The translations under genes and the position numbers were made by a program. A stretch of 62,775 bases of DNA, filler included, from Phoronis australis (Eukaryota > Animalia > Phoronida), in NCBI GenBank assembly GCA_002633005.1. It is 9 parts of 9 records of this genome, joined end to end, with 100 filler letters (N's around TTAATTAATTAA, not from the genome) between each part and the next. Parts side by side here need not be neighbours in the genome. Positions count along the whole stretch, not along the records: positions 37,358 to 41,402 come from NMRA01002732.1; 8 more parts are not named here. One strand, 5' to 3'. Below, piece by piece: positions 8,021 to 55,118 of this stretch (position 1 is the stretch's first letter; the number at the start of each line of letters is the position of its first letter). Below the pieces are notes generated by a model. The model was not told the origin of the DNA and did no database searches. It worked only from the letters and a program-made list of their open reading frames with translations.

Positions 8021-11000
8021 CTATGGATTCAGTACAATATTCCCCTTGGCTCCAGATGATTGTATGATTTCTGTGTGTGCTTGTGGTGCCCTTTCAAGGG
8101 GTAATACATGGTCAACAACCGGTTTCAGCCAGCCTTGCTCGAGTCCAACATAAAGAAAGTCATTCATCTCTTGATACTCTGCCTACACAAAACAGAAATG
8201 AACAGGTAATTAATAGACTGCAACCATGCACATTGTTTTGTGTTAATGTGTAAAACATTGCTATTATGGTCCCATATTTGATAATTTCCCCATCTAACCA
8301 AACAGTAAATGACGAATAAGTGTCTATCTTGCAATTGAATTACGTCCTCTGAAGAGCCACCTAGCAAAATTAACACCACCCCCCCCCCCTAAATTTCTGA
8401 CAGTAAGACAAAAGTCACTCTGACCATACAACAGACCTATTACGAGATAAGAAGCAAAGTGTATTTTTATCCCACCTTCCTTTTTCTCGAGGTGCTAACA
8501 TTCTAGATACTGTTACTGCACCGTGGGAATTCACCTGATGGTTACAAGACCTCATGCTGGTTTTCCCCCTGCATGCCTATGTAGACCTCATGCAAGGTTA
8601 TGCTACAAGATTTTGTCCCAGTTTTCTTCTAAGTCAGCGAGTGAACTATTGCAAACCACAACTAACCCCTTTTACTGGCTGACAAGGAAGTCATTTTTGC
8701 CTATGCTGTCAAATGGACATCTCATACAAGGTATAATAAGAGATCCACCATCTTGCCATCTTGTGACGACCAGATCACAAAAGCCCTGCTGAATTTGACA
8801 AAGACGTACAGGTTTCACCCCAGGCTTTCTACAGGGGGAATCTAAAGCAGTTATTCCATGGGCGGCGCACCATAGGGAGCTAGGGGTGGCTTTTGCCCCC
8901 CACTTTTTTCAGTGCTACGCCGCACATGGTCTATAGGTGGTGCTGTCAATTAGTTGCAACACATCTTATTTCTCATTGCTCACTCTAAGGACAACTTACC
9001 TGTGTGGTTGAGGCATACCTTACACCAGCTATACTACAGTCCTTTGTCATTAACATTCGAGGAGTGATTTCAATGTTGCTGCGGCTTCCAATAATCTAAA
9101 ACATAACACAATAACACTTGGACATCATAACTCAATACCATAACTGATTACACACTTACAAATCCAAAATTAAGACGTATTAATTAAAATCCCATACTAA
9201 TATCAGTGCTATCACTGAATGTTCTATTCAGCTAAATTTGAGCAAGTTTGGTCCATACTGCAGCCAATAGTTCCCACAGATGCTGGCTGCCCCTGACAGT
9301 TTTACCAACCAAAAGCTTTCTTGGAAATTTGAAGTGTTCTATTCAAGTAAATCACAAAAATTGCAAGTGCTAAAGTATAGAAATATGTCGTTTCATGCCG
9401 CCACTTGAAAATCCGTAACAGATGATTCACTTTAAAGGTTTTGTAGAAGCTTAGAAAAATTAAAATTTTGGCCAAATTCTGAACATCATAACTCAGAAAT
9501 GGCTTGTCAGATTCACATGAAATTCTCAGATACTATGCTTCACGCAGTCCTCCAAACCCAAAATTTTGCTAGAAATTGTTTTTAAAATATTCCACTTTTG
9601 CATAAAATGAGAATGAATGAACGAAACAATAATTTAGAAAACTGTAACAGCATTTTTGAGACCATTTTATATATAATATTCTTATCATGCAAAATTTGGA
9701 AATGATATTGATCTTCTTATTTTGTTATGAATGTACTTTTCCTTTTTTACTAAATTTTACTAAAAAAGCACAGTCACGTGACCTAATTGATGGCAGATTG
9801 GTATATACTACGGTTCACTTAAATTCTGTTCTGCAGATATTTGGCTAAATGTAGTCTTGACGATATGGTCCTATATATTAACCTTAAATGTAGTTTATGA
9901 ATGCCCACGACCTCTGCCTTGATAGTGGCTTAGAGTTTTGCAGAGGTTTGCAAGTCATGGGCATGATCAACACACAATGCAAGGTCATTGAGAGTAGTTT
10001 TATGTGAACTTAGTCATACAACTGACCCAGATGGCCTGTACGTAAGCACAGCTTAACAAAGGGTTTATGGTCCTGTCTGAGAAGATAATTGTTTTATTAC
10101 CCTCTCAGGCATTTGAATAGCCCAGCCCCAAATGAGATTTTAGGGGCCCTAAGTTATAAAAAGTATGGGGCTCCCGTAATTTAAGTTGCATGACTGTGCA
10201 ACCCCTGTGCAAACATTTTGTTTGAAATAATTTCTACATCATGACAACTGCAAGTTGACCCGCACAGTATAAATGGTCAACTTTAAATAGATTGATGAGT
10301 TATGGAGCCGCTAAAGGAAATCTTAGAATCATCTAGATTAGTTTTTTTCTTAGTGTTGGAGGTATTTAAAGAGAACGGCACTATACCATGCCACATGTTC
10401 CGTAATAACATTCATTGTACTTTATCTCCTCTTCATATTTACCAAAATTTTCCCCATCTGTGCCACAAGGTCAAGATCTCTTTGCAAGTTGGCGTTGGCA
10501 AGCATCTCCAGAATTATGTTCATTCCCTCAGGACAGGCATCCTTAAAAACATTTGTAAGACAGAATTTAGAATTGATATAGTCATTAAAATATATAGCTA
10601 AGAAGCATTCCAATATCAGCCTTTTGATTTTTGCAAATAAACAATTCAGGAAGCACTTGGTAAATACAAAATTAATCATCTAACGTTTATCGAATACCAT
10701 GCAAAAATTTCTATTTTTTTTTCAAACAATTCACTGGCAATACTTGGTAAAATACAAATAGCCATCGAACGTTTTATTTTACGGCTGCGGCAAGTGTCAA
10801 CTGCTTTGTTTAGCGTAGACGATGTTCAAATAACATTGTCGTTTAGTTCCCGTAATACACTAGCATAGTTAGAAGCATGCAAACACATTCTTTAAAGAGA
10901 AGAACTGGAAGGTAACGACATGTATTCACCAAACTCTTAAATAATCTGTTGGACAAGCAGTTACTAATCTTAAACCTCTCGTCGACGGATGAAAAATTTT

Positions 11001-13770
11001 TGAGAACAAGCAATGATTTAACCTACATGGGTATAAGACTCAGGATGCATTAAGTATTGGTCCCTAATTGTAACAATACTTGAGTTACACTTACAGTATT
11101 TTCTACACGTCTACAGAATTAGCCTTCTGTCTAGTTGACCCAGTCTCCTTAACTGGTCACACACTGGTGTCATTAAGTCATTGATAGGATATTTACACTG
11201 CTACTGAGTTGTTAAAGCCCCTGAAAAGTTACGCCCCTGGTAATCATACCTTGATTTCCTGAACATATCCTTCCTTCCTGTGGTTGAACACCCTGTGAGC
11301 CCCACTCTCTCGTACGACCTCCATTCCCTCAGAGGTTCCAGCGGTACCGAACACCCTCAATCCTCGACTCTTAGCAAGCTGACAAGCAGCTAGCCCTACA
11401 CCACCGGAGGCTCCATGGACTAGCACTGTGTCCCCAGGCTTAGCATAGCCCCTGAAATGAACACGATTGAAAAGAATGTGGACAAGGTGATCAGAAGATG
11501 AGAAATAAACAAAGTAACCTAAACCAAACTGTATCTTTCATGTGCATAGAAGATTACATCCACATGTAGCTAACCATGTCTAAGGCAGCAGCTCAAACGC
11601 ACATGTTCCAATATAGCAACGACCTTTTGAAATAAACTGCATTGCTAAATGGCGTCGTGATTAAGTTTTATGGACAAACAATCAGTGTCACTTACACGCT
11701 ATGTGGACATGCATTTAGACCACCATGACTTTACAGCATTTTTTAAATTCTCCATGGCCATTATGCCTTCTGATAACCACCGCTGTGCAGTGAGATGTTC
11801 TAGTAACAAGTGCCAAAACGCAAACCTCAATATACATCAGATACAAACATGTCGCACGACTATAGGGATACATAAATGCTTATCTACATTTAAATACAGA
11901 TAGGCAATAGTTACAGGCGTCGAATGCATAAAGATCAATATTATGCCTTTATAATAAATCAGCCTAGATTCAAGCAAAACAGTGTTGGAATGTACTTCAT
12001 AAAATATGTTTTTCACATCTGGATGGAATATAAATAAATCTAGAATTTAAGGTTAAACTTACTTCAGGAATAAAGCTTTATACGCAGTGTAGTAAGGTGT
12101 GCCAATAGAAGCTCCTTGTTCATAGGTGACATTATTTGGGAGGAGATGACCCATGACAGAGTCCATGACACAGTACTGGGCATACCCACCACTGTGAGTG
12201 CCCTGGCTGAATGGGGCTTTTACAGCATAGACTCTGCTGCCAGGCTGAAAATAACATATAGTCACTGTTCAGTAAGTGTTACAGTCTCGAACTAGCAAAT
12301 GCGAAACCTACGCTACAAATTCCAAACGTATGGCCCCAAACCAATCACTACACACAAACCGACACTACCATATGCATTCACTCCAGTATCGAACCATTGA
12401 TGCATGAGTGGAGTTTAACCCCGGGTATGGAGTGTGTGGACTTGATAAGGGCACGAGTATGGAATTAGTGCCACAAGTTTGATGTTACGGCGAATAAGAT
12501 GACACGCTGTGACTAGTAGAGCCTGGTCTTGAGTAATAACAAGCAGTCAGTTCAAGCCCAGAAATCTCACCTATCATGACTATAGACGACTATTTGATAA
12601 AAAGTTCACAATGGTAAGTAGTCTAAATCAGTGCTTTTTGTGGTGAAAGATGGGCTTTATATGCTTAAAGACAATGCATTACCTTAAACTGTTTAACATC
12701 ACTCCCAACCTGCTCCACTTCCCCGGCCAAATCATTCCCTGGGACATAGGGCAGTGACGGGTTATAGCCCTGGCCTCCAGTGCGGATGTATGTGTCTCGA
12801 CGGGATTGACACCACAGGCCTTCACCTTCACCAGGATCTGCAACATGGTGTATGACATCATAACTAAGAACTCAGGGTTTGTCTGCAGCACGCTCTTCTG
12901 CAGAAAGACATGGATACGATTTTCTTGGGAGCCGCTCACTATACAGTCTATAACAACTTTGGCATCGCTCACGCACAGTACATAGCTTGCATTTCGTCTT
13001 GAAAATAACAAATAACAGAACTTGTATACCTCATCAATGTTAGTAAGTTATGGGGCACGTGTCACGACAGGAGTCACTACTTCCCACTGCCTTTTCACCT
13101 CTCCTCAAATTCCCTGTCATGATGACTGAGAGCAGGAATTCATTGCCATAGTAACTGGGGTGTTGTGTCATGGTCAGTTGTAACCAGGATTTTGTCAGTC
13201 AGATTACATACTTGAAATGTACTGTACATTCAAAAAATATTTAGACAAAATGACCCGGAATTCCCTGTCATGGCGGCTAAGTGGAAGCCAAATTCCTCAT
13301 CAGACTGTTGTTCCCTCGTGGCCGACAATGAAGGGGGACGAACACTGGGGAAAATTAGTATGGTGGCTAAGCTATTCTATAATTAGAATTCTGCCACACT
13401 AATAGTTGTTTCTAGTAATTCGTGCAGTTAACTGAATCAGTCAGAAAATGCTTTTTTGTCTGATTACTTTTGTCTTGTCCTGTACTATCGGTCTACTTAA
13501 TCAGAATACACGGATAGTTAGACAAGAATGTTTACTAAGCACAAGCAGAAAAAGCATGCACATAAAATACATCACTGGTAGTGTGTTCCAACATGTCTCA
13601 CACTTATAGGCTTCTAGGCACCACTTGCATGCCAATACTTTAGTTGAGAAATTATGAAGAGAACAAAAACAGACCTCAGTGGGTTTCAGTGCAGTGGGTA
13701 GAGCTTTCTGGACAATTTTTAAGACTTCTGGCCCTCCACATTGAGCAACTTCGATAGCAGAATACATCAT
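8021..13770 (-). CDS. CRYZ: Quinone oxidoreductase / zeta-crystallin; 7 coding exons: 13770-13675, 12837-12683, 12244-12063, 11451-11250, 10541-10443, 9095-9000, 8182-8021; apparent 2-nt frameshift in exon 2
   Basis: All introns are GT-AG. Translation gives [58 protein letters not shown]-like [34 protein letters not shown] (NADPH binding), [30 protein letters not shown] and GWLKPVV...[10 protein letters not shown]. Exons total 992 nt; removing 2 nt gives 329 codons plus stop. Confidence 0.93.
8857..8928. mobile_element. Short hAT-like MITE remnant (related end at ~38200-38313)
   Basis: CATGGGCGGCG...CGCCGCACATG inverted ends; CACTTTTTTCAGTGCT.CGCCGC.CATG is shared with 38287-38313; no clear TSD. 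Confidence 0.5.
9420..9885 (+). repeat. Old interspersed repeat family (related pieces near 22200-22260 and 51740-51975)
   Basis: Shared strings AAATTTGGCCAA, GATTCA.ATGAAA, TAGAAATTGTTTT, TTTTGCATAA, ATATTTGGCT.AAT and GGTCC.A. Confidence 0.5.
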
Positions 13771-14654
13771 AATGCCAGCCAACTACAAAGAAAGGAAAAA
13801 CACTCAACTCAGAACAGTACTGGGTGAATAGACACTGGTTGGATTAAACAGTCCTTAATTTTGAGAATTAGTTTGGTTGACACTATACCAGGCCCACGTA
13901 GCCAGTGATTGAATGGGTTTCAAATTCAGGCACCGTCAGTGCCCAAAAAGAACAGTGATTTACCAAAAGTCTTAATCCATGTTGCACAGGTGTGGGTGAA
14001 ACTATTTACATGTCATGATAGCAAGTAGCAGCATATGTAAATAAAAACATTGATGGATTTAAACTGGCTTGGGGATGGTGTTTCAATAAACGCCAAAACA
14101 TGTCAAGCCAGCTTAAATCCATCATTGGTTTAATCATTTTAATGTCTCTTTGGAAGTTTGGAGGGTGTTAAACCTATGCCATGATATTTATAAGTCATGT
14201 TATATTTTGCAAGTAGAACTAAGTCATTTAGTCTTTCTCAATGTTGAGCACTAAGAGGCAATTTTTGAAATGCATCAAGAACCAAGGACCTGTCAGTGTC
14301 ATTGACTCCAACCATGTTTTATGAAAATCCCGAAGTTCCTGAAGTTCAAAGGTTAAAGTCAAAACTTTGCAACAGAATAAATCTCCAGTGAACACCAAAA
14401 ATTTGAATTTCACCTCATCGGACACATTGCACAGTTGAGTTGCCGTCAAAACCATATAAATACGTATTACACGACCGGCTGGTCAAACACAAAGGTGCTA
14501 TGCTGTTTCATACAGCTAGCTGGCTGGCTATGCTGTAGCTGAGCAGGTGAGCATGACCGGCCCGGAAAATAAACACCAAACTAAATAAATACTGTACGAA
14601 ACACTGATTGAATGAGTCCTGATTAGTATTTACATGACTACTAAAATTACTCAC

Positions 14655-17196: not shown

Positions 17197-18654
17197 CATA
17201 TTCTTAGTCATGCTGGCGAAGCTGGCTAATAACATCATGTGCTGTTCTTGTGTCTCCTTCCGCTTATTGTAGTATTCCAAGATGGACTTCTTTATCTTGT
17301 GAACTATGAGCAGTAACACGAATGGCAGTGGGCTGAACAGCAAGACCCACATGGCCATGGTGGAGATGACGTCAGCGTCCGGCTGCTCTAGAGTAAATCG
17401 TAGTGTTAGTAGCGCCAGGGCGCAATTCGATAATGCCGTTTCTGTTGCTAAAGTTTTGGCGATTGGTTTTTTTTGTCGAGCAATTATTGCTAGGAATCCT
17501 CCGGTGCCAAAACCGAGAAACGGCAGCGAGATGCCAGCGATGATGGCGAATTTGTCTATGACGTCAAACATGTACATGTTGATATAGATGCCGAGAGTGA
17601 CAAAGAGAATGGCTGCCAGGAGCAGCAGAGGTCGAATGACCCAGGTGAGCATGGCCTCTGCAACGGCAGGCTTGCAGTGTAACGTTAGAAGACCGAGTAA
17701 ATAGGGCACCACAACAGAGATGAGGCAAGCTTCCAAAAGGAAGAATGGGAAATCGATAGTGCCAGCGATGCTTGGAAAGAATTGTCCTAGGGAGTAGACC
17801 CAAATTGGAGCTATCACTGAAATCAAACAAGACAGGAATTAGCCAACGCAAAATCTGTGGTTGATTTGAAAAGGTTTGTGTTAACTGAGGTAAATTTAGC
17901 ACAAGTCTATAGTTTGGTGATGGACCTGTCAGGATTCGATACTCACATGATTAGTCTTTTGAAACTACATTCTGCAAATTCACGGTCCTGTCAAAAAGAT
18001 TTCCTATGGTTCGAGAATTATGAAAATCAAAGTACTACCTTAGTTGATAAGAAATTGTTCTGCCATCAGATGGAATGTCAAACTAGACGTCTTGCCTGTA
18101 ATGAGTCGCCTGTTGTAATTGGTTTGTTTCAGAAATGTCTCCAGATTTTTGGAGTGCAGTAAAAATTCCCCAGTTTGGGACATAATGTGGCGGACAGGTG
18201 AAATTTCATTTTGCTCTTATTTCTCTACAAAATAACTTTCCAGGAAAATTAGTTTTTTTTCTGTGATGTTTTAATGGGGGGGGGCTTTTAAAAGGACATT
18301 TTCCAAATAAATGCCCCTCTATTTGAACACTTAACACCAGAAGTTACAACACCAAAAAAATGCCCATGGGCGTTTATTTGGCATAATTTTCCGGGTGGGC
18401 TTATCTACGGAAAATCCTGGTACCATAATTTTTATTATTGGGAGGATCAAGATGTAATACTCACCAATTACAGCCGTAGTACTGATGAGATTCATGGCCA
18501 TACTGAGCTCTTTGTCAGCATTGCCAATGATTATGACTAGAAGATGACCCATACCGCCACCTGGTATGCAGGACACAAACAGCAGTCCAAGTGCTAGGTT
18601 GTTATGTAAGCTTCCTGGCTCCAGACTGAGTATTTGAGCAAGTGCAAATGCCAT
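17197..18654 (-). CDS. SLC10-family sodium/bile-acid cotransporter-like protein, partial; exons 18654-18465 and 17816-<17197 (runs into gap)
   Basis: Phase-compatible GT-AG intron. Multi-TM sequence with ALGLLFVSCIPGGG, DKELSMAMNLIST, IAPIWVYSLG, LPFLGFGTGGFLA and AKTLATETALSNCALALLTL, matching the SBF/SLC10 layout. Upstream exons not found. Confidence 0.85.
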
Positions 18655-19840
18655 CTGTGAAAAAAATTGAGCTTGGTTTTTATCCCACACTTGTGATGAA
18701 GCAAAACCCAAGAGACTAGTTCAGTAGGTTTAAGTGGACAAGATTTGATGATCAGTCCTTTGTGCCTGAGTTTTAAATCTCTTCAGAACATGTTTTGTCT
18801 ATTCCATGATTTTATCGAATTGCAGAATGCATTCCCTTGCATGTTACGTCATCAACAAAAGTGGCAGAATATGATTATGCTTGGCTAGTCAATATTATTC
18901 AGTGCGCAACTTGCTGTTGTGAGCTCTTCATTAATATTATGATGTAGGGTTTGGATCATATAATACTGGTATGCCTGCCTGCAAACAAATACTCACTAAC
19001 AAGATTAAACCATTTTTCTTTTAAATTGTAGCGGTCTGTCTTGCATCTCAGCTGGGATTTCCAAAGAAACAAGTCGAACAGCCCAATGGTTTGAGACATT
19101 GTAAAATGAAGAGAAGACAAATTTTGGCGATTATTTTTAAGCAAAGTTGTTGAGATTTCGTTGTAGCATAACAAATTAGATTCTGTTTCATTATTTCTTA
19201 AGTTATTAATGTGTTCTAAACAATGTTCTAGGAATTGTTCCAATTGTCTTCACATACATGATGTGAGTATCTATCCTGAACACCTGCCAATTACAAAGTC
19301 TGTGATTGCATGCTTTCACCACCTGTTCAATTCCCAAGTTCACGTACCATTGCTTGGCTGACAAAATTCAGGATTATTGATTGGTGAGCCTCTGTAGTTA
19401 ATAGGATACTATGTAGCAACCATGGGCATTCCAGGACAGACTCGACATGTTAAGTTTGTGAAAAGGAAGGGCTACTACCCAACTACACTGTTTGAGATTG
19501 TGTAAATAAATGAATATATTTATTTTTGTGAAAAATTTTGACAAAGTGGAACTTAATTCATTACTGGCTATAAGTAAATAACATACTTGAAGTTAAGTAG
19601 GATCGTAGGAAAATGTTCAAAGTTGGCTTAATTCGGAACATCTTGTGGCAGAAATGGCTGATCGGATTCATAAGAAATGTGCGGGTACTACGGTATATGG
19701 ACTGTTTTCCAGAACAGTGTCAGGTGTTAGCAATTATTGAATGTATGTTACTCATCCAGTTAAGGCATAATGCAAAACAAAACAAAAATAAATGAATTAA
19801 TAAAAATGATCAAGAGGAAATCTCAAAAATGTTGTTACAG

Positions 19841-37357: not shown

Positions 37358-37404
37358 GTATTCCCAGGCGCTCACCCATCCAAGTACATAACCGGGCCCT
37401 GACC
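37358..37404 (-). rRNA. 5S rRNA-derived fragment (approx. 5S nt 55-102, diverged), not a complete gene
   Basis: Minus strand GGTCAGGGCCCGGTTATGTACTTGGATGGGTGAGCGCCTGGGAATAC versus invertebrate-type 5S ...GTCGGGCCCGGTTAGTACTTGGATGGGTGACCGCCTGGGAATAC. Confidence 0.8.
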
Positions 37405-38545
37405 AGCCAATCGCTGAGCCCTGTTAAGCACGGGCATTTCCTTAACAGGCCAATCGCAGTGCTCTGTTAAGCAAGGGCCTTGCTTAACAGCGCTTAACCA
37501 TTGGCTCGTTCGGCTGACGTCAAATTCCAATATGGCTACCACCTGCCACGAAGTCGTCGCTTCAAAAGTTTGAAGTCGAATAACGTCGCAAATACGTACG
37601 TATGGACATCAATATTTGGACAAATGTGGGAGGCCTAAGGGTAGAACAAGTGCGTCTACTTTAATTTTACTCATTGCCTCTGTATTTTCAGTTATTTAAC
37701 AAAGTTGTTCCTCTTCCGGCGAATTAGGTCATTTAGGTCATTGTCATGGTTACGCCGGCTGACCGGGTTGGGCCGTAAATTAAAATTGCAAATATTAGCG
37801 AAAGTACGCAAAGTTGGATTACTTCATTTGAGTGATCGTGAGATGGGGTCAGCTAGGTTAATTGAGCGTAGTCAGATTTTTCTTCATTGCCTTAGATTTG
37901 GTGAAATTAATCAGTTTTCCGTTCACTTCCGGTTTCAGTGCCGGCTTCGCCGACGGACGCTTTTTATGCAGTTTTAAACACTCGAATTTGCGACCAATTC
38001 TCCGTGAAACATTCAGTTACCGATTCGCACCGATCCATCCGTATGTCTATGAACAAAGAAAACCGTTAACACCATAATGGAATTCTCCAAAAACACAAAA
38101 TCCTTTCGTAAACTTTGGCACTGTTCATTCATGTTGTCATCGATCAGCTGATTTCTGCTCTGAACCAAATTTAGTACATTACATTGGCAGTTTATCATAG
38201 GGGACTACATGAGGGGGCTATAGTCCCCGTGGTCTGCGGACGATGCACGGCGGGTTGGCTGGGGGTCTTTAGCCCTCCCCCACAACACTTTTTTCAGTGC
38301 TGCGCCGCCCATGCAATATCGATGCTTTTTGTGTTTTAGAATTCATTACCTACAACTGTCAATTTTGACTCGACACATGAAAATTCACAAAGACGGGACG
38401 GGCTTCAAGTGCGATCCGAACTTCCTAGCCATCCCTGCAGTAAACTCACCACATTAGAATCACGGTATTGTTTTACTGCTCAATGGGTGCAGTGTTTTTT
38501 ATGTAATGCTAAAGTGAGTTGTTCGTATGTTGTTAAATCTTGCAG

Positions 38546-40007
38546 GAGACAGCATGTGAAATCGAACGAATTCTCGAGGAGTTCAAGGGACCCGCGGGCC
38601 TGGACGTGGATGGTATACCCCTGTTCAAGTCCCTTGAGGCGGTCGAGTGCCACTGGACAACAGCTAGCAAGCACTTGAGCTGCATGCAGGTGGGTATCCT
38701 TTGAGTGCATAGTCTATTCGGCTATCCTGGTGCAAGCAGAGTTAACTATAGTGACGTGTCATTCAAAGCTAGTGTCCGTGGTGGGTACGCAAAATATTGT
38801 TTGATTGCTGGTCGGTCGGCTTGTCAGAATAACACTGTCCCACAAGTCGAGCACAAATCCAATACCCCATGCTTATTGTATAGCCATCTGTTCTCTCAAA
38901 ACTGTCCACTCTGTGATGACGCTGGTTTAATCTTGTTTGTAACTTTTCTAACTGCTCTCCAGGATCCACAAGGGATCCAACTGTATGTGTGTACAAAAGT
39001 GGTGACAGTTAACGGTGTTGAGCTGAAGAAGTATAGATGTCGAAGAGGTACCAATTCACTGGAGGGTCTCCATTCCCACTTGTACAACGCTGTGCCATCG
39101 CAACGATGCGGTATTACACCGTTCCAGGTAATCACACCTGTCTGGCTATCGGACGTGTTAATAGAGAAAGATTTCTCCTTAAAACTTTCCCTTGTGCGCT
39201 ACACGCAATATCTCAGTAGGACATCTGATGTAGAATAAGTGCGTGGTTAACGTTGTTCTTTGTAGCTGTACATTAAAGAATTTCAATGTGCTGGAAAAAC
39301 ATATCCTTCTATGTTGCCGTGTGTTTCAGGTGTACCTCATTGCGTTCGCGGTACAGTGGAACCAGCGAATGGAGTCGCTTCGTGTAGCTGGAGGTCGGGG
39401 CCGACTGACGTCGTGCCTTGATCCAAGGCTCATCCAACGGCTCAACCAGCACTCTGAGGTGCTCTTTGGGAAGGGCCACCTCTTTGATCCGAACTTCCCG
39501 TCCCCATGCCGTACCCACAGCAATACACCGACCCAGAAGAGGAGGAACTCTTAGGCGTAGAATACGCGTATTGTCAGTCTACCAGCTTCAAATCCAAGGA
39601 ATATTATGTCGAGAAGGGTGAGCAGACCTGTGCTGCGTAGCTGAATTTGCCACTGAATAGAAATTAGCTATGCCAAATTAGTGATAGCACTGCTTTGTAA
39701 CAACATGCTCTTTACGGTATATCATAAGAATACTTTAATTGCCATTTCAGTGGATGAAGAGCAATCGCACCAAGAGCCAGACGAGAGCGAGTCGGAAGAC
39801 GAGGGCGTAGAGGTTGAAGAGGCGGTGGTTGACGATGACCTCATTGATCACGTGAGCTCCAATGCTGCACTCACGACTTCGGAAATGGTCACTGCAGAGG
39901 AAAGTCCCGCACTCCAGGATGTTTTAATGTCCGTTCGACACCTCCATCTCCCCGGCTTTGAAGAAGTTGAGGCATTGGCACTTGCACTGTTAGAACTAGT
40001 AGATGTT
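38546..40007 (+). pseudogene. Dada-type transposase, C-terminal half; exons 38546-38689, 38963-39127, 39330-39617 (1-nt frameshift near 39498), 39751-~40007
   Basis: GT-AG exons encode ETACEIERILEEFKGPAGLDVDGIPLF...HW...KHLSCMQ|DPQGIQLY...ELKKYRCRRGTNSLEGLHSHL...FQ|VYLIAFAVQWNQR...PNF/...ELLGVEYAYCQS|acidic EDEG tract...LPGFEEVEALA. The QDP-G-LY, YRCxRGTxSLExxH, WN and ELxGVEY motif order is that recalled for Dada transposases. Confidence 0.78.
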
Positions 40008-40009
40008 GG

Positions 40010-40237
40010 TGAGACAGTGTGGTCATTCGGCAGACACATGTCAAGTACGGTCTGTTTGTGAATTTCCTGGCAGGGGCCGTCCTTGCTTACAACAAGGACG
40101 ACATGATGCTGTTAGTGAACGCTGTGAGAAAAGGGAGTGAGAAACTGTATACTGTGGACACCGATATGCAGACGATAACATTCCTGAAGCCTTCGAAGCT
40201 TTTGTCCTATCTTCGGCATGTCACTTGCTTAGTTGAG
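40010..40237 (+). pseudogene. Displaced Dada transposase exon fragment (normally upstream of the 38546 exon)
   Basis: VIRQTHVKYGLFVNFLAGAVLAYNKDDMMLLVNAVRKG...LLSYLRHVTCLVE then a GT donor. Resembles the HxxYGxF...DxxxLxxAxR...RxxTRGxE block that precedes ET...GxPLF in Dada transposases. Confidence 0.55.
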
Positions 40238-41381
40238 GTAAAAATGTGATGTAATGTTAAAGAAGCTAGTAAATCATTTCTTAAGGCTTGTCCTTGACGA
40301 GGAGTTGGCAATAGTTATTTCAAGGTAGTATATCCATTAGAAGTAACTTGCTGTGGTTGACTGTCGTAGCCAAGAGAATGTTTAGACCAGTTTGATAATG
40401 TTTTAGTCTGTTTACATTATATGAATGTGTCTTTACCTGCAGTTGTTATCAGAGACTGATGATGATGTTATTGTACAGTTGACATTAGAGGGATGGCAGT
40501 CTTTGGAATATTTCTTGGTAGTGTTGTTTTTCTGATTTTCTTTCTCTCAATGGCTTTCCGTGCCAGTGTGTGTTGTATCACGCCAGCTTTGTAACAAGCT
40601 ACTGTGTATAACTTGCATTCCATCTTGCTGAGTAACCATTGTGTATCTGTTTATGTGGTTAACTCTTGCTTTGGTCATTGTAGTGTAACTCAACAAGTAC
40701 AAGTGAACTTGGCAGCAGCGTTGTATTGTGTGTTGACTGTCTCGGTATGTCAGTGAGATGGTTGTATTCAGTAACTAAGTGTAGAACACTCAAGTACACT
40801 CATAGCAGCAAAGTGAGGACTATCTTTATTAGACAAGTGAGCCGTTTATGTACAAGTTACTGTAAACATGAAAAGTCTGCTAGGGAAGTAGTATTACCAA
40901 TACTGCTATCAAACCAACATACTTAGTAATTAACATATATCTTGAATATATAACGCATTTCATGACAGTTGTATTTGTAAATAAAAGCTGAGGTAACACA
41001 GCCATATTGAACGATTATGTTCACTCTTTAGAAAGGCACAACGTGATGTTATGGATCGAATCCTGGCGGCTGGCCGTGCCTGTTACCTCAGCTTGAATTC
41101 TCTTTTAAATAATTGCTTTTCCTCTTCAATCATGAGGAACAAATATATCTCATACCTTGTTCATATGTATTTATATAAAATAAATTAATGGAAAGGCTGT
41201 AAAAATCAACCAACTTTAATAATTTAGTGCATTACACAATATATTTATGATAATATGGTAAAGAAAGATTGTCAACATCAAGCACCTTGGCTTGGGCCTG
41301 CTTTGGTCATCTAGAAGCAGCGCCATCTTCTGGCGCGTGCTTTCAAGCATGACCCATATGTACTTCCAGGGGCACCTGCCC

Positions 41382-41402
41382 ATTCCCAGGCGGTCACCCA
41401 TC
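41382..41402 (-). rRNA. 5S rRNA gene fragment (C-box region) running into the gap
   Basis: Minus strand GATGGGTGACCGCCTGGGAAT, 21 nt identical to recalled invertebrate-type 5S rRNA. Confidence 0.7.
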
Positions 41403-52474: not shown

Positions 52475-55118
52475 CTTGTTATGGTAGTTGCGTATTTCAC
52501 CCTGTAGCTTCTTGATGATTTCATTGGCTTTGATCAGCTCTTCGGACATTGTCTTAATTGACGACTCCATCTTCGATATCTGTCGCTGCTTTCGTTCAAG
52601 ATCATCTTCGTATTTTTTCTATACAAAATAAAAAGTCTCCGCACTTAACTCCTCAGAGTTATCCAAACATTAATAAGGCCAAAGAAAGTAGAATAACTGG
52701 TTCTGGTCTGTGCTTCTTTAAAAATAGCTACAGTGATTTAGTATTTTTAGTAGTCCATTTACTCAAAAAGAAAGTCAACTGATGCCAGCTGAAATGTGTC
52801 AGNNNNNNNNNNNNNNNNNNNNNNNNNNNNNNNNNNNNNNNNNNNNNNNNNNNNNNNNNNNNNNNNNNNNNNNNNNNNNNNNNNNNNNNNNNNNNNNNNN
52901 NNNNNNNNNNNNNNNNNNNNNNNNNNNNNNNNNNNNNNNNNNNNNNNNNNNNNNNNNNNNNNNNNNNNNNNNNNNNNNNNNNNNNNNNNNNNNNNNNNNN
53001 NNNNNNNNNNNNNNNNNNNNNNNNNNNNNNNNNNNNNNNNNNNNNNNNNNNNNNNNNNNNNNNNNNNNNNNNNNNNNNNNNNNNNNNNNNNNNNNNNNNN
53101 NNNNNNNNNNNNNNNNNNNNNNNNNNNNNNNNNNNNNNNNNNNNNNNNNNNNNNNNNNNNNNNNNNNNNNNNNNNNNNNNNNNNNNNNNNNNNNNNNNNN
53201 NNNNNNNNNNNNNNNNNNNNNNNCTGAAATCCAGCTGAACACTGGCTCTCCATATACACACAACAGGTTATCACATACCTTTTGCTCCTGTTCCAAGCCT
53301 AGTAAATCTGAACTCCTGGACAACACTTGGTCTTTGTCTCGGCACTCCTGTTCTAGAACAGCCACACGGGTCTTTAACTGGTTGGTCATCTTTTCCTATA
53401 ACCACGCACAAAGACAAACACACTAGGTCACAGATCTAGTACTTACAGATGTACAGAGAATGACACATAGAAAAACAAAATATTTCTCCCTGATCCACTT
53501 ACCCACAGAGGGAGCCAGGGTAGGGCAAGAGGACACAAAAATAATTTAAAACGACCTTATTTAATTAAATGACAAGCCAAGACGCGATGCGTATGTCCCA
53601 CCCATTTCATGTTCAAAATGGCAACTTACTGCAAAAAAATTCTCAAAACTTGTTTCTAATTCAGACAAGAAGTAATTTCTACGCTCGGAAAGAGACAACA
53701 GCACATTCTTTCTGGTGACCAAGCTGAATTAGCTGGCCATTCTTGGTCATCATTTTAACCTATTCATTATAAAAAATACCTGCGTAGGTACGTGCGCTGA
53801 AATAATACCCCTCTATTGAAATAAATATGCCGCGTTCACAGGCCACTTTCCAATTGCCACCAGATGCCACGAAGTCAAGCACAGCATACAACCTCTGACA
53901 TGACCTCACCTGTTCATGAAAGTCCCTGTCTAACGAGCTGTTTTCCTTCCGTAGGACTTGCACTTCCTGTTTCGCTCGCTGGTGTTCTTCCTCCAGGCTC
54001 GACAACCTCCCTTTCAACTCTCGTATGGTCGAATCAGAGCGATACTTCTTGTCAGTCAAATCCTGAAACGCACAACAGGGTACGTGGACTTTCAAATGCA
54101 CTAGGTGGCGCTAGGGAAACTACTATCCTCCCTGTAGTAATGCATGCATTGAGATACCATGGGACTCATGTCCCACGACTGTTGCCAAGCTGGTATGCAG
54201 AGTTGTGATGACAATCAATTCAAATGATGAAAATCAGCTCCAGTGTTCTGTTTCAAGAAGAGTCTATTGTTTTTCAGCTAAACACCAGTCTACGTATGGC
54301 TTAGCCTCTTTCACAAAATCAGGCCAAGGCTAAAAGCCAGAAAATTTGTCTACAACTCAAAGCCAGAAATCTATAGCCTTCGTGGGAGCAGACTAAATGC
54401 CAAAGCAGAAAGTCAAGCCTCCACTATACACTCTTTGAGCAATAGGTTCCCGAGCAATACTGGGTCACTCGTTGTGGAAACTAGTGTAAACAAAATATTC
54501 CTATAGTCCTTCCAGACAAAATTTCTATAAAAGGTAGAATAGATTTTTCTTAGTTTTCGCTCTGCACAGATATGTATTTACTTTGTGAACAATGGCTTTT
54601 TGTTTTTTGGAAGCTATGAGCAAGCTTTTAAGTCAAAAGCATATTTTTTTTACTTGGAACTGTTCCAAGATGGATTCTAGAGACACAGGTACATTCACAG
54701 TCAACAGATATCCTCTTATTCTGGACTAGTGTTGAAGTTCACGGAATAAGTTTTGGTGGAAGTTCTATTAACTGCAAGGAGGAACTGACTCTTAACATTT
54801 ACAAACACTTCTCTTGTTTACAACACACAAAATCAACAATGTCACATGAAATTTAATCCCAATATTGGACTTAAATTTTACCCTATTGGCTGCCTCATAT
54901 TCCTACTCTCACCCTATTGGCTGCCTCAGATTCATACTGCTATCTTATTGGCTGCCTCACACTCATACTCTTGCATTATTGGCTCAAACTAGTGCTCTTA
55001 CCCTACTGGCTGCCTCAGTCTCATACATTTTCGCCTCCAGCTGTTTAACAATCTTTAGATGAGCCTGCTCCAAGTCGCGTTTCTCACGCTCGTATCTCTG
55101 TTGTAAATCAGTCTGGGA
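52475..55118 (-). CDS. SASS6: Spindle assembly abnormal protein 6 (SAS-6), internal coiled-coil exons 55118-55002, 54062-53910, 53395-53279, 52618-52475
   Basis: Phase-0 GT-AG exons encoding ETEAASR|[20 protein letters not shown]...|[24 protein letters not shown]...|...[22 protein letters not shown], matching SAS-6 ([47 protein letters not shown]). Confidence 0.92.
54876..55026 (-). repeat. ~31-bp tandem repeat (x5) built from a SASS6 exon 3' end and splice donor
   Basis: Minus-strand units GTATGAnnnTGAGGCAGCCArTAGGGTrAGA; the first unit is the real exon end and donor. Confidence 0.85.

Follow-up and report, generated by a model that had tools for sequence, protein, structure and literature searches.

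Contig NMRA01002732.1 of the Phoronis australis assembly (positions 37358-41402 of the 62.8-kb stretch of joined contigs that we analyzed, hereafter the window) very probably consists of a defective copy of Dada-5S, a cut-and-paste DNA transposon, lying between two pieces of 5S ribosomal RNA (rRNA) sequence. The copy is inserted at the same base as in fish, its host is likely to be an invertebrate, and it would need a helper transposase to move. The finding concerns this one whole contig. The contigs of the window are joined by artificial spacers, so the gaps into which both ends had been said to fall are contig ends. The Dada superfamily was defined by Kojima and Jurka (2013, PMC3706591). A later survey, which covered vertebrates only, described six Dada-5S families from five fish species and placed them as sister to Dada-U1 (Dada-5S_ClH, Dada-5S_LaRo, Dada-5S-A_CaAu, Dada-5S-B_CaAu, Dada-5S_NoCe, and Dada-5S_OrMe; Kojima, 2022, PMC8869645).

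Insertion site and junctions

As the reference we use L009, a full-length Dada-5S element from a metagenome contig that lies inside a 5S gene called RF00001 by Rfam. The ends of L009 match the printed ends of Dada-5S_ClH. The L009 flank that aligns to the right flank of our contig (Table 1) is itself RF00001 by Rfam, and the junction positions in the two elements are identical: the insertion is at ATTCCC(A)GGCGGTC of the 5S sequence, with the transposase running antisense to the 5S gene. The published Dada-5S target is ATTCCCAGGCGGTC (Kojima, 2022).

The initial annotation had reported that CGCCTGGGAAT is common to both junctions, and this observation stands, as do the coordinates and junction letters that it gave for both contig ends. 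The word occurs exactly twice in the window (37360-37370 and 41382-41392, both on the minus strand), the chance mean is 0.01, and 0 of 100 shuffles reached two occurrences. Similarly, each junction pattern has a single match in the window, where 0.01-0.02 would be expected by chance. The repeat looks 11 bp long because the element's left end is a near copy of the 5S target. An 11-bp target-site duplication was ruled out, as the five extra bases belong to the left end of the element, which is colinear with that of L009. The duplication is 6-7 bp: ATTCCC is present at 37360-37365 and 41382-41387 (GGGAAT in the 5S sense), and the next base, A, is also common to both junctions, so that 7 bp fits too. 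We favor 6 bp because the sub-terminal repeats (see below) are then symmetric, at 16 nt on both sides, here and in L009. Counted in this way, the element is 4016 bp long. The Dada-5S sequences of Kojima (2022) start one base later than this 6-bp boundary.

The 5S gene had first been thought to resume at 37370. Because of the ungapped colinearity with the left end of L009, we assign 37366-37404 to the element, and the host-derived left flank is 37358-37365 only (GGGAATAC in the 5S sense).

Are these flanks really from a 5S gene? They might instead belong to a 5S pseudogene, to a 5S-derived short interspersed element, or to the 5S-like left end of a neighboring Dada copy, with no working 5S gene involved. 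The flanks are very short, the Rfam scan of the window gave no 5S match (the 5S pieces are too short for a call), the element's own left end resembles 5S, and Dada copies with non-target sequence on one side have been published (PMC3706591). However, the right flank carries the 5S letter where the left end of the element differs (14 of 15 bases match), the left flank goes on with the two 5S letters of L009 and not with a right end, and both contig ends lie only bases away from the junction, which a collapsed repeat would explain. We consider a non-genic origin of the flanks to be improbable.

Element ends

The element has no terminal inverted repeats and instead carries short sub-terminal inverted repeats (a perfect 9 bp), which is a hallmark of Dada. 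The ATATGTACTT portion of the right repeat is identical, and at the same offset, in L009. A GTACTT motif lies 16 nt from GGGAAT in the target and at both ends, in our element and in L009. The 5S gene that holds L009 has AAGTAC at an equal offset: the target echoes the sub-terminal repeat, as in the Dada superfamily generally.

The left end is a near copy of what we take to be the intermediate element and the C box of the 5S promoter. Its likeness to 5S extends for about 38 bases (a copy of about 90%). Of its first 22 bases, 20 equal the L009 5S target, a score that 0 of 2000 shuffles reached, whereas L009's own left end has 16/22. The left ends of the two elements are colinear, without gaps, over 73 columns and on into an array of direct and inverted CCAAT repeats. 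This array is likely to be the transposase promoter, as RNA depth starts in the bin 37493-37627.

All four DNA runs also contain a contig in which 41365, where the right sub-terminal repeat ends, is joined to 37400 via 17 other letters. Two of the four also skip 37431-37541, at equal depth. The joint (its orientation was not given) possibly fits a tail-to-head junction of tandem or circular copies.

Transposase remnants

We compared the transposase pieces with a profile of 1289 positions. The element covers only 649-1017, with 649-724 placed last; nothing in it matches positions 1-648 and 1018-1289 except a remnant of a finger exon. Both catalytic Asp residues and DxxH are missing (the CIDG motif at 540, YADN at 609, and DIRHW at 640 are all uncovered). 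DUF6729 and the C-terminus are gone from this copy, and the N-terminal CCCC and C-terminal zinc-finger regions of Dada are deleted. The sole Dada catalytic motif present is GTNSLEG, with the presumed Glu, whose catalytic role is suggested by its spacing relative to D567/D635/E811 of Dada-U6_DR (PMC3706591). Judging from its sequence, the copy, which lacks the complete DDE triad and DxxH, is non-autonomous, yet its family membership is unaffected. Non-autonomous Dada elements have been described (PMC3706591). For example, Dada-U6N1_DR of zebrafish also keeps both ends and the target site and has no working transposase (PMC3706591), but it was described as a simple internal deletion, whereas in our copy an exon has been displaced as well and splicing persists.

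The exons occur in the order C-D-E-F-B, although the normal place of the 3' part of exon B would be ahead of exon C. The splice junctions are at the same coding positions as in L009, and the introns have GT-AG joints. So, the spliced exons with Dada motifs that had been noticed in this contig are indeed Dada exons separated by GT-AG introns, but the presumed Glu motif is the only one present and the order is scrambled. Pfam searches with nine single frames of the window gave nothing above the cut-off, and the finger remnant matched zf-H2C2_2 with E = 0.004, which is below the cut-off.

Table 1. Features of the Dada-5S contig, in window coordinates
Feature	Position	Strand	Evidence or remark
Dada-5S element, non-autonomous, rearranged	37366..41381	+	ends align to L009 ends; protein pieces in 5S clade
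3' part of interrupted 5S gene and left duplication copy (37360-37365)	37358..37365	-	letters as at L009 junction; contig end
Left end, closely resembling the 5S intermediate element and C box	37366..37404	+	36/40 by blastn
Left sub-terminal inverted repeat, AAGTACATA	37382..37390	+	16 nt from duplication
CCAAT direct and inverted repeat array, upstream of exon 1	37397..37510	+	homologous in L009; also seen at the 5' ends of four fish Dada-5S
Exon 1 (approximate start; lacks a long frame)	37500..37595	+	donor 37595; 5 X7 reads splice to 38546, GT-AG
High-copy short repeat in intron 1, unrelated to element	38200..38322	.	depth in thousands, many unlike loose ends, 4/4 DNA runs
N-terminal C2H2 finger exon remnant (second half of finger 1, start of finger 2)	38358..38418	+	tblastn E 0.25 to P0011 6-39
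Exon C (P0009 aa 763-812)	38546..38689	+	
Exon D with presumed catalytic Glu, codon 39062-39064	38963..39127	+	
Exon E, frameshift near 39498	39330..39617	+	donor spliced in 3 RNA runs
Exon F, cut off at rearrangement joint (~40012)	39751..40012	+	
3' portion of exon B, displaced (reference aa 690-764, directly following DxxH), GT donor kept	40013..40237	+	
Right sub-terminal inverted repeat, TATGTACTT	41357..41365	+	16 nt from duplication
Right duplication copy (41382-41387) and 15 bases of 5S 5' part	41382..41402	-	20/21 identical to L009 5S flank; contig end

Another possibility is that the scrambled order is an assembly artifact of a normal, intact element. The assembly is fragmented, several high-copy repeats lie within the contig, and no single contig or read covers the whole 4 kb. 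But the joint at 40012 is crossed, with no gap, inside single, independently assembled contigs in all four DNA runs (one sample). It is also covered, at depth 11, by RNA from another study (run X7). The RNA of that study joins exon 1 to exon C as well, 96 of 139 reads are at least 99% alike, and no indel is listed in the reads at the frameshift of exon E. An artifact of this kind seems very improbable.

Three short high-copy host repeats are nested in the element (38200-38322, 40725-40870, and 40975-41110). The first is palindromic and resembles a miniature inverted-repeat transposable element.

Relatives of the transposase

A search with one exon retrieved 22 relatives at 75-85% identity (E of 1e-23 to 1e-14). 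The protein pieces together are 62.9% identical to L009 (369 columns), 52-68% identical to 22 proteins of the 5S clade, and 34-38% identical to 13 U1-type proteins. Trees of 35 and 92 rows both placed the element in the 5S clade, apart from the U1-type clade (support of 100 and 99, all of it from the Shimodaira-Hasegawa-like approximate likelihood ratio test; P0027 and P0069 were excluded from one of the trees for their short alignments). The 5S clade is anchored by L009 and by two labels read by eye. By eye, P0009 and P0010 (Labeo) match the coding start of Dada-5S_LaRo in the supplement, and P0053 resembles the coding start of Dada-U1_EtSp.

Within the 5S clade, the element falls outside the fish-plus-amphioxus clade (support 99.2). 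Branches of brachiopods and echinoderms are nearby, and no closest relative of the element has support. By tree or by identity, the 5S clade includes proteins from Lingula, Strongylocentrotus, Apostichopus, Acanthaster, Antedon, and Anneissia, as well as three Branchiostoma entries. These comparisons support the view that the element belongs to the same lineage as fish Dada-5S, with the same site, and is not a separate lineage. The initial annotation had proposed a 5S-specific Dada outside fish. Our results agree: the protein groups with Dada-5S (L009 and a Labeo protein) and not with a non-Dada superfamily, the base and end geometry are the same, and the host is likely not a teleost.

More broadly, the element shares with fish Dada-5S the target ATTCCCAGGCGGTC, the insertion base, the antisense orientation, the AAGTAC motif 16 nt in, the CCAAT repeats at the left end, the intron positions, and 63-65% protein identity. 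It differs in its likely invertebrate host, its branch outside the fish-plus-amphioxus clade, its left end, which is nearer to the 5S target, its length (4.0 kb vs. about 8.2 kb), its deleted catalytic core, and its displaced exon. With Dada-U1 it has in common a similar target word, sub-terminal inverted repeats that are echoed in the target, and tandem insertions, which are published for Dada-U1 (PMC3706591) and are expected here because the left end rebuilds the target. In contrast to our element, which has AAGTAC/GTACTT, Dada-U1 has GTGCAA/TTGCAC, and the proteins are 34-38% identical, as given above.

What is new, then, is the range extension of Dada-5S, the target-like end, and the clade-specific fingers (see below); the family itself is known. 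We found no published Dada-5S outside fish, although Repbase, Dfam, and subscription journals were beyond our search and an entry there is possible. A passage of a 2026 review (PMC13565253) gives no invertebrate case.

In the trees, the fish Eleginops maclovinus has a Dada-5S-clade protein that falls with those of Branchiostoma (80% identity, support 99; 70-77% to other fish; P0021, P0014, P0019). Fish as a single clade were rejected (p-AU, the approximately unbiased test, of 3.2e-6), but the choice of this group followed inspection of the tree. The grouping could stem from horizontal transfer, from old paralogues, or from contamination. Also, public databases annotate Dada transposases as uncharacterized DUF6729 proteins (P0056 carries an unrelated, apparently wrong name), and our literature search found no paper on DUF6729.

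Junction scans of other collections

The junction pattern had 11 matches in metagenome contigs. Three of these (L002, L006, and L009) represent one fish-type 5S-Dada junction. The other 8 of the 11 have neither upstream 5S nor a transposase match, and none is of the invertebrate type. The viral and prokaryote collections gave 0 and 0 matches to the junction pattern, and protein-alignment scans of the same two collections confirmed 0 of 53 and 0 of 84 candidates. L002 (1372-5145) is a fish-type Dada-5S copy that is missing reference aa ~655-979; it is either the L009 element with an internal deletion or the result of a shortcut in the contig.

The host

The right flank differs from fish 5S at one base. 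We take the variant base to be common in invertebrates. In another contig of the window, one 67-aa exon of a host quinone oxidoreductase (CRYZ) is 63-67% identical to six teleosts, which are 70-82% identical among themselves; it is 64% identical to a tunicate and 61% identical to a scorpion. The best named match of a host exon reached 70%, a level that points to no particular phylum. From these sequences, the host is likely an invertebrate and not a teleost.

If the contig came from a fish, as host or as contaminant, there would be nothing new about it. The best single-exon matches are indeed to named fish and amphioxus proteins (75-81%), but the placement of the element's protein outside the fish-plus-amphioxus clade and beside the brachiopod and echinoderm branches, the variant flank, and the host exon that is not teleost-like all speak against a fish source, and the element is also carried in three RNA samples from a second study with the same species label. 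We see very little chance that this is the explanation.

Transcription and a sister copy

Raw RNA reads were available from three runs of the second study (X5, X6, and X7); X8 covered repeats only. Two coding introns are spliced (GT-AG, sense strand) in all three raw-read runs. In X7 only, exon 1 is spliced directly to exon C.

Seven reads of X5 link a diverged exon 1 to an exon that opens with ATG and Cys-x2-Cys and is absent from our copy. Three of these reads rejoin the finger remnant at 38358. Therefore, a fuller sister copy is expressed in the species. This diverged copy (seen at 37540-37597) is also found in DNA and accounts for most of the exon-1 reads of X5; it shows several fixed differences, and its upstream sequence is homologous to that of our copy but not the same. 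Within X7, RNA depth drops from 7 to 0 inside exon D (region 39046-39330), which could reflect a cryptic donor near 39048 or an allele deletion.

That the truncated, spliced copy has been retained for a function, as a repressor peptide or a regulatory RNA and comparable to the domesticated dDada of carps, is highly unlikely: its sense-strand RNA is spliced in 3/3 runs and its rearranged form is found in samples of two studies, but the longest ATG frames in the spliced form are 131 and 140 aa and are split by the frameshift (assuming the D-E joint), depth is low (about 10 reads), antisense reads are as numerous as sense reads in X5 and X6, and neither the ends nor the 5S site are damaged, which is what an ordinary non-autonomous copy would show.

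Several points weigh against our interpretation of the contig as a defective Dada-5S copy in a 5S sequence. The main weakness lies in the flanks: of their 21 and 8 bases, just 15 and 2, respectively, are host 5S outside the duplication. (Four DNA records and six RNA reads run past the contig ends.) We have a single locus, and so one insertion as the evidence for site specificity in this host. The comparison that points to an invertebrate host uses a single 67-aa exon from another contig. The D-to-E splice is not among the joints listed, and X7 depth is 0 at 39076. Finally, the sister copy is known from short reads only.

Zinc fingers of the 5S clade

N-terminal C2H2 fingers are present in 9 of 13 proteins of the 5S clade vs. 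0 of 10 other Dada proteins (counting proteins with at least 430 residues before the core). Pfam confirms C2H2 fingers in 3/3 5S-clade proteins and in 0/2 others. The four 5S-clade proteins without fingers may be gene-model errors. Unlike the 5S clade, the three U1-type proteins tested have no N-terminal C2H2 fingers. The text of Kojima (2022) does not mention zinc fingers.

The targeted stretch of 5S overlaps an oligonucleotide that serves as a binding probe for TFIIIA (PMC13345412). One hypothesis is that the fingers read the 5S control region. An origin of the fingers from TFIIIA is unsupported: TFIIIA is absent among the best 60 of 314 PDB matches, and the only Pfam TFIIIA match is sub-threshold and lies on the 20-aa remnant (E = 0.034), with three full proteins giving no such match.

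A broader and much more speculative proposal, which we think possible but doubtful, would make Dada-5S a lineage found across the animals and represented in fish, amphioxus, echinoderms, a brachiopod, and this host. It would have kept to a single base of the 5S promoter for more than 500 million years and would sometimes have crossed from one phylum to another. Two N-terminal C2H2 fingers specific to the lineage would read the 5S control region that TFIIIA binds, and the left end would be a captured copy of the target. If this were true, one DNA-reading module would serve both the end and the target, and swapping the fingers and the end would re-aim a sequence-specific DDE transposase.

How the copy might have formed

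We propose that the transposase binds one motif (GTACTT) in both ends and in the target and would cut with a stagger of 6-7 nt. The defective copy would be moved in trans by the transposase of a fuller sister copy. As the left end re-creates the target, a second copy could insert in front of the first, and a head-to-tail dimer followed by deletions would give the exon order C-D-E-F-B. Alternatively, the displaced exon could equally be due to template switching during gap repair, as occurs with other DDE elements. An overlap between the two halves of the B-C intron would favor duplication over permutation; a comparison of the halves gave just 11-16 bp matches at chance level. Returning to the insertion of one copy in front of another, tandem insertions of Dada-U1 have been published (PMC3706591).

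The value of this finding is in the lineage, as the defective copy itself is dead weight. Dada-U6 was the sole target-specific lineage previously known from several phyla (PMC8869645). Given the identical base and the distant branch position, 5S targeting would be a second Dada specificity that is either long-lived or widely transferred. How Dada finds its target was left as an open question by Kojima (2022), and the 5S clade offers two handles on it: an end that is nearly a copy of the target, and C2H2 fingers that, of all the proteins tested, only members of the 5S clade have. Both features bear on tools for site-specific insertion.

Other genes in the window

Exons of host genes are found elsewhere in the window. 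The quinone oxidoreductase is at 10425-13782 (minus strand). An SLC10-like transporter and a SAS-6-like piece, both labeled by eye only, are at 17300-18720 and 53763-54110 (both minus strand).

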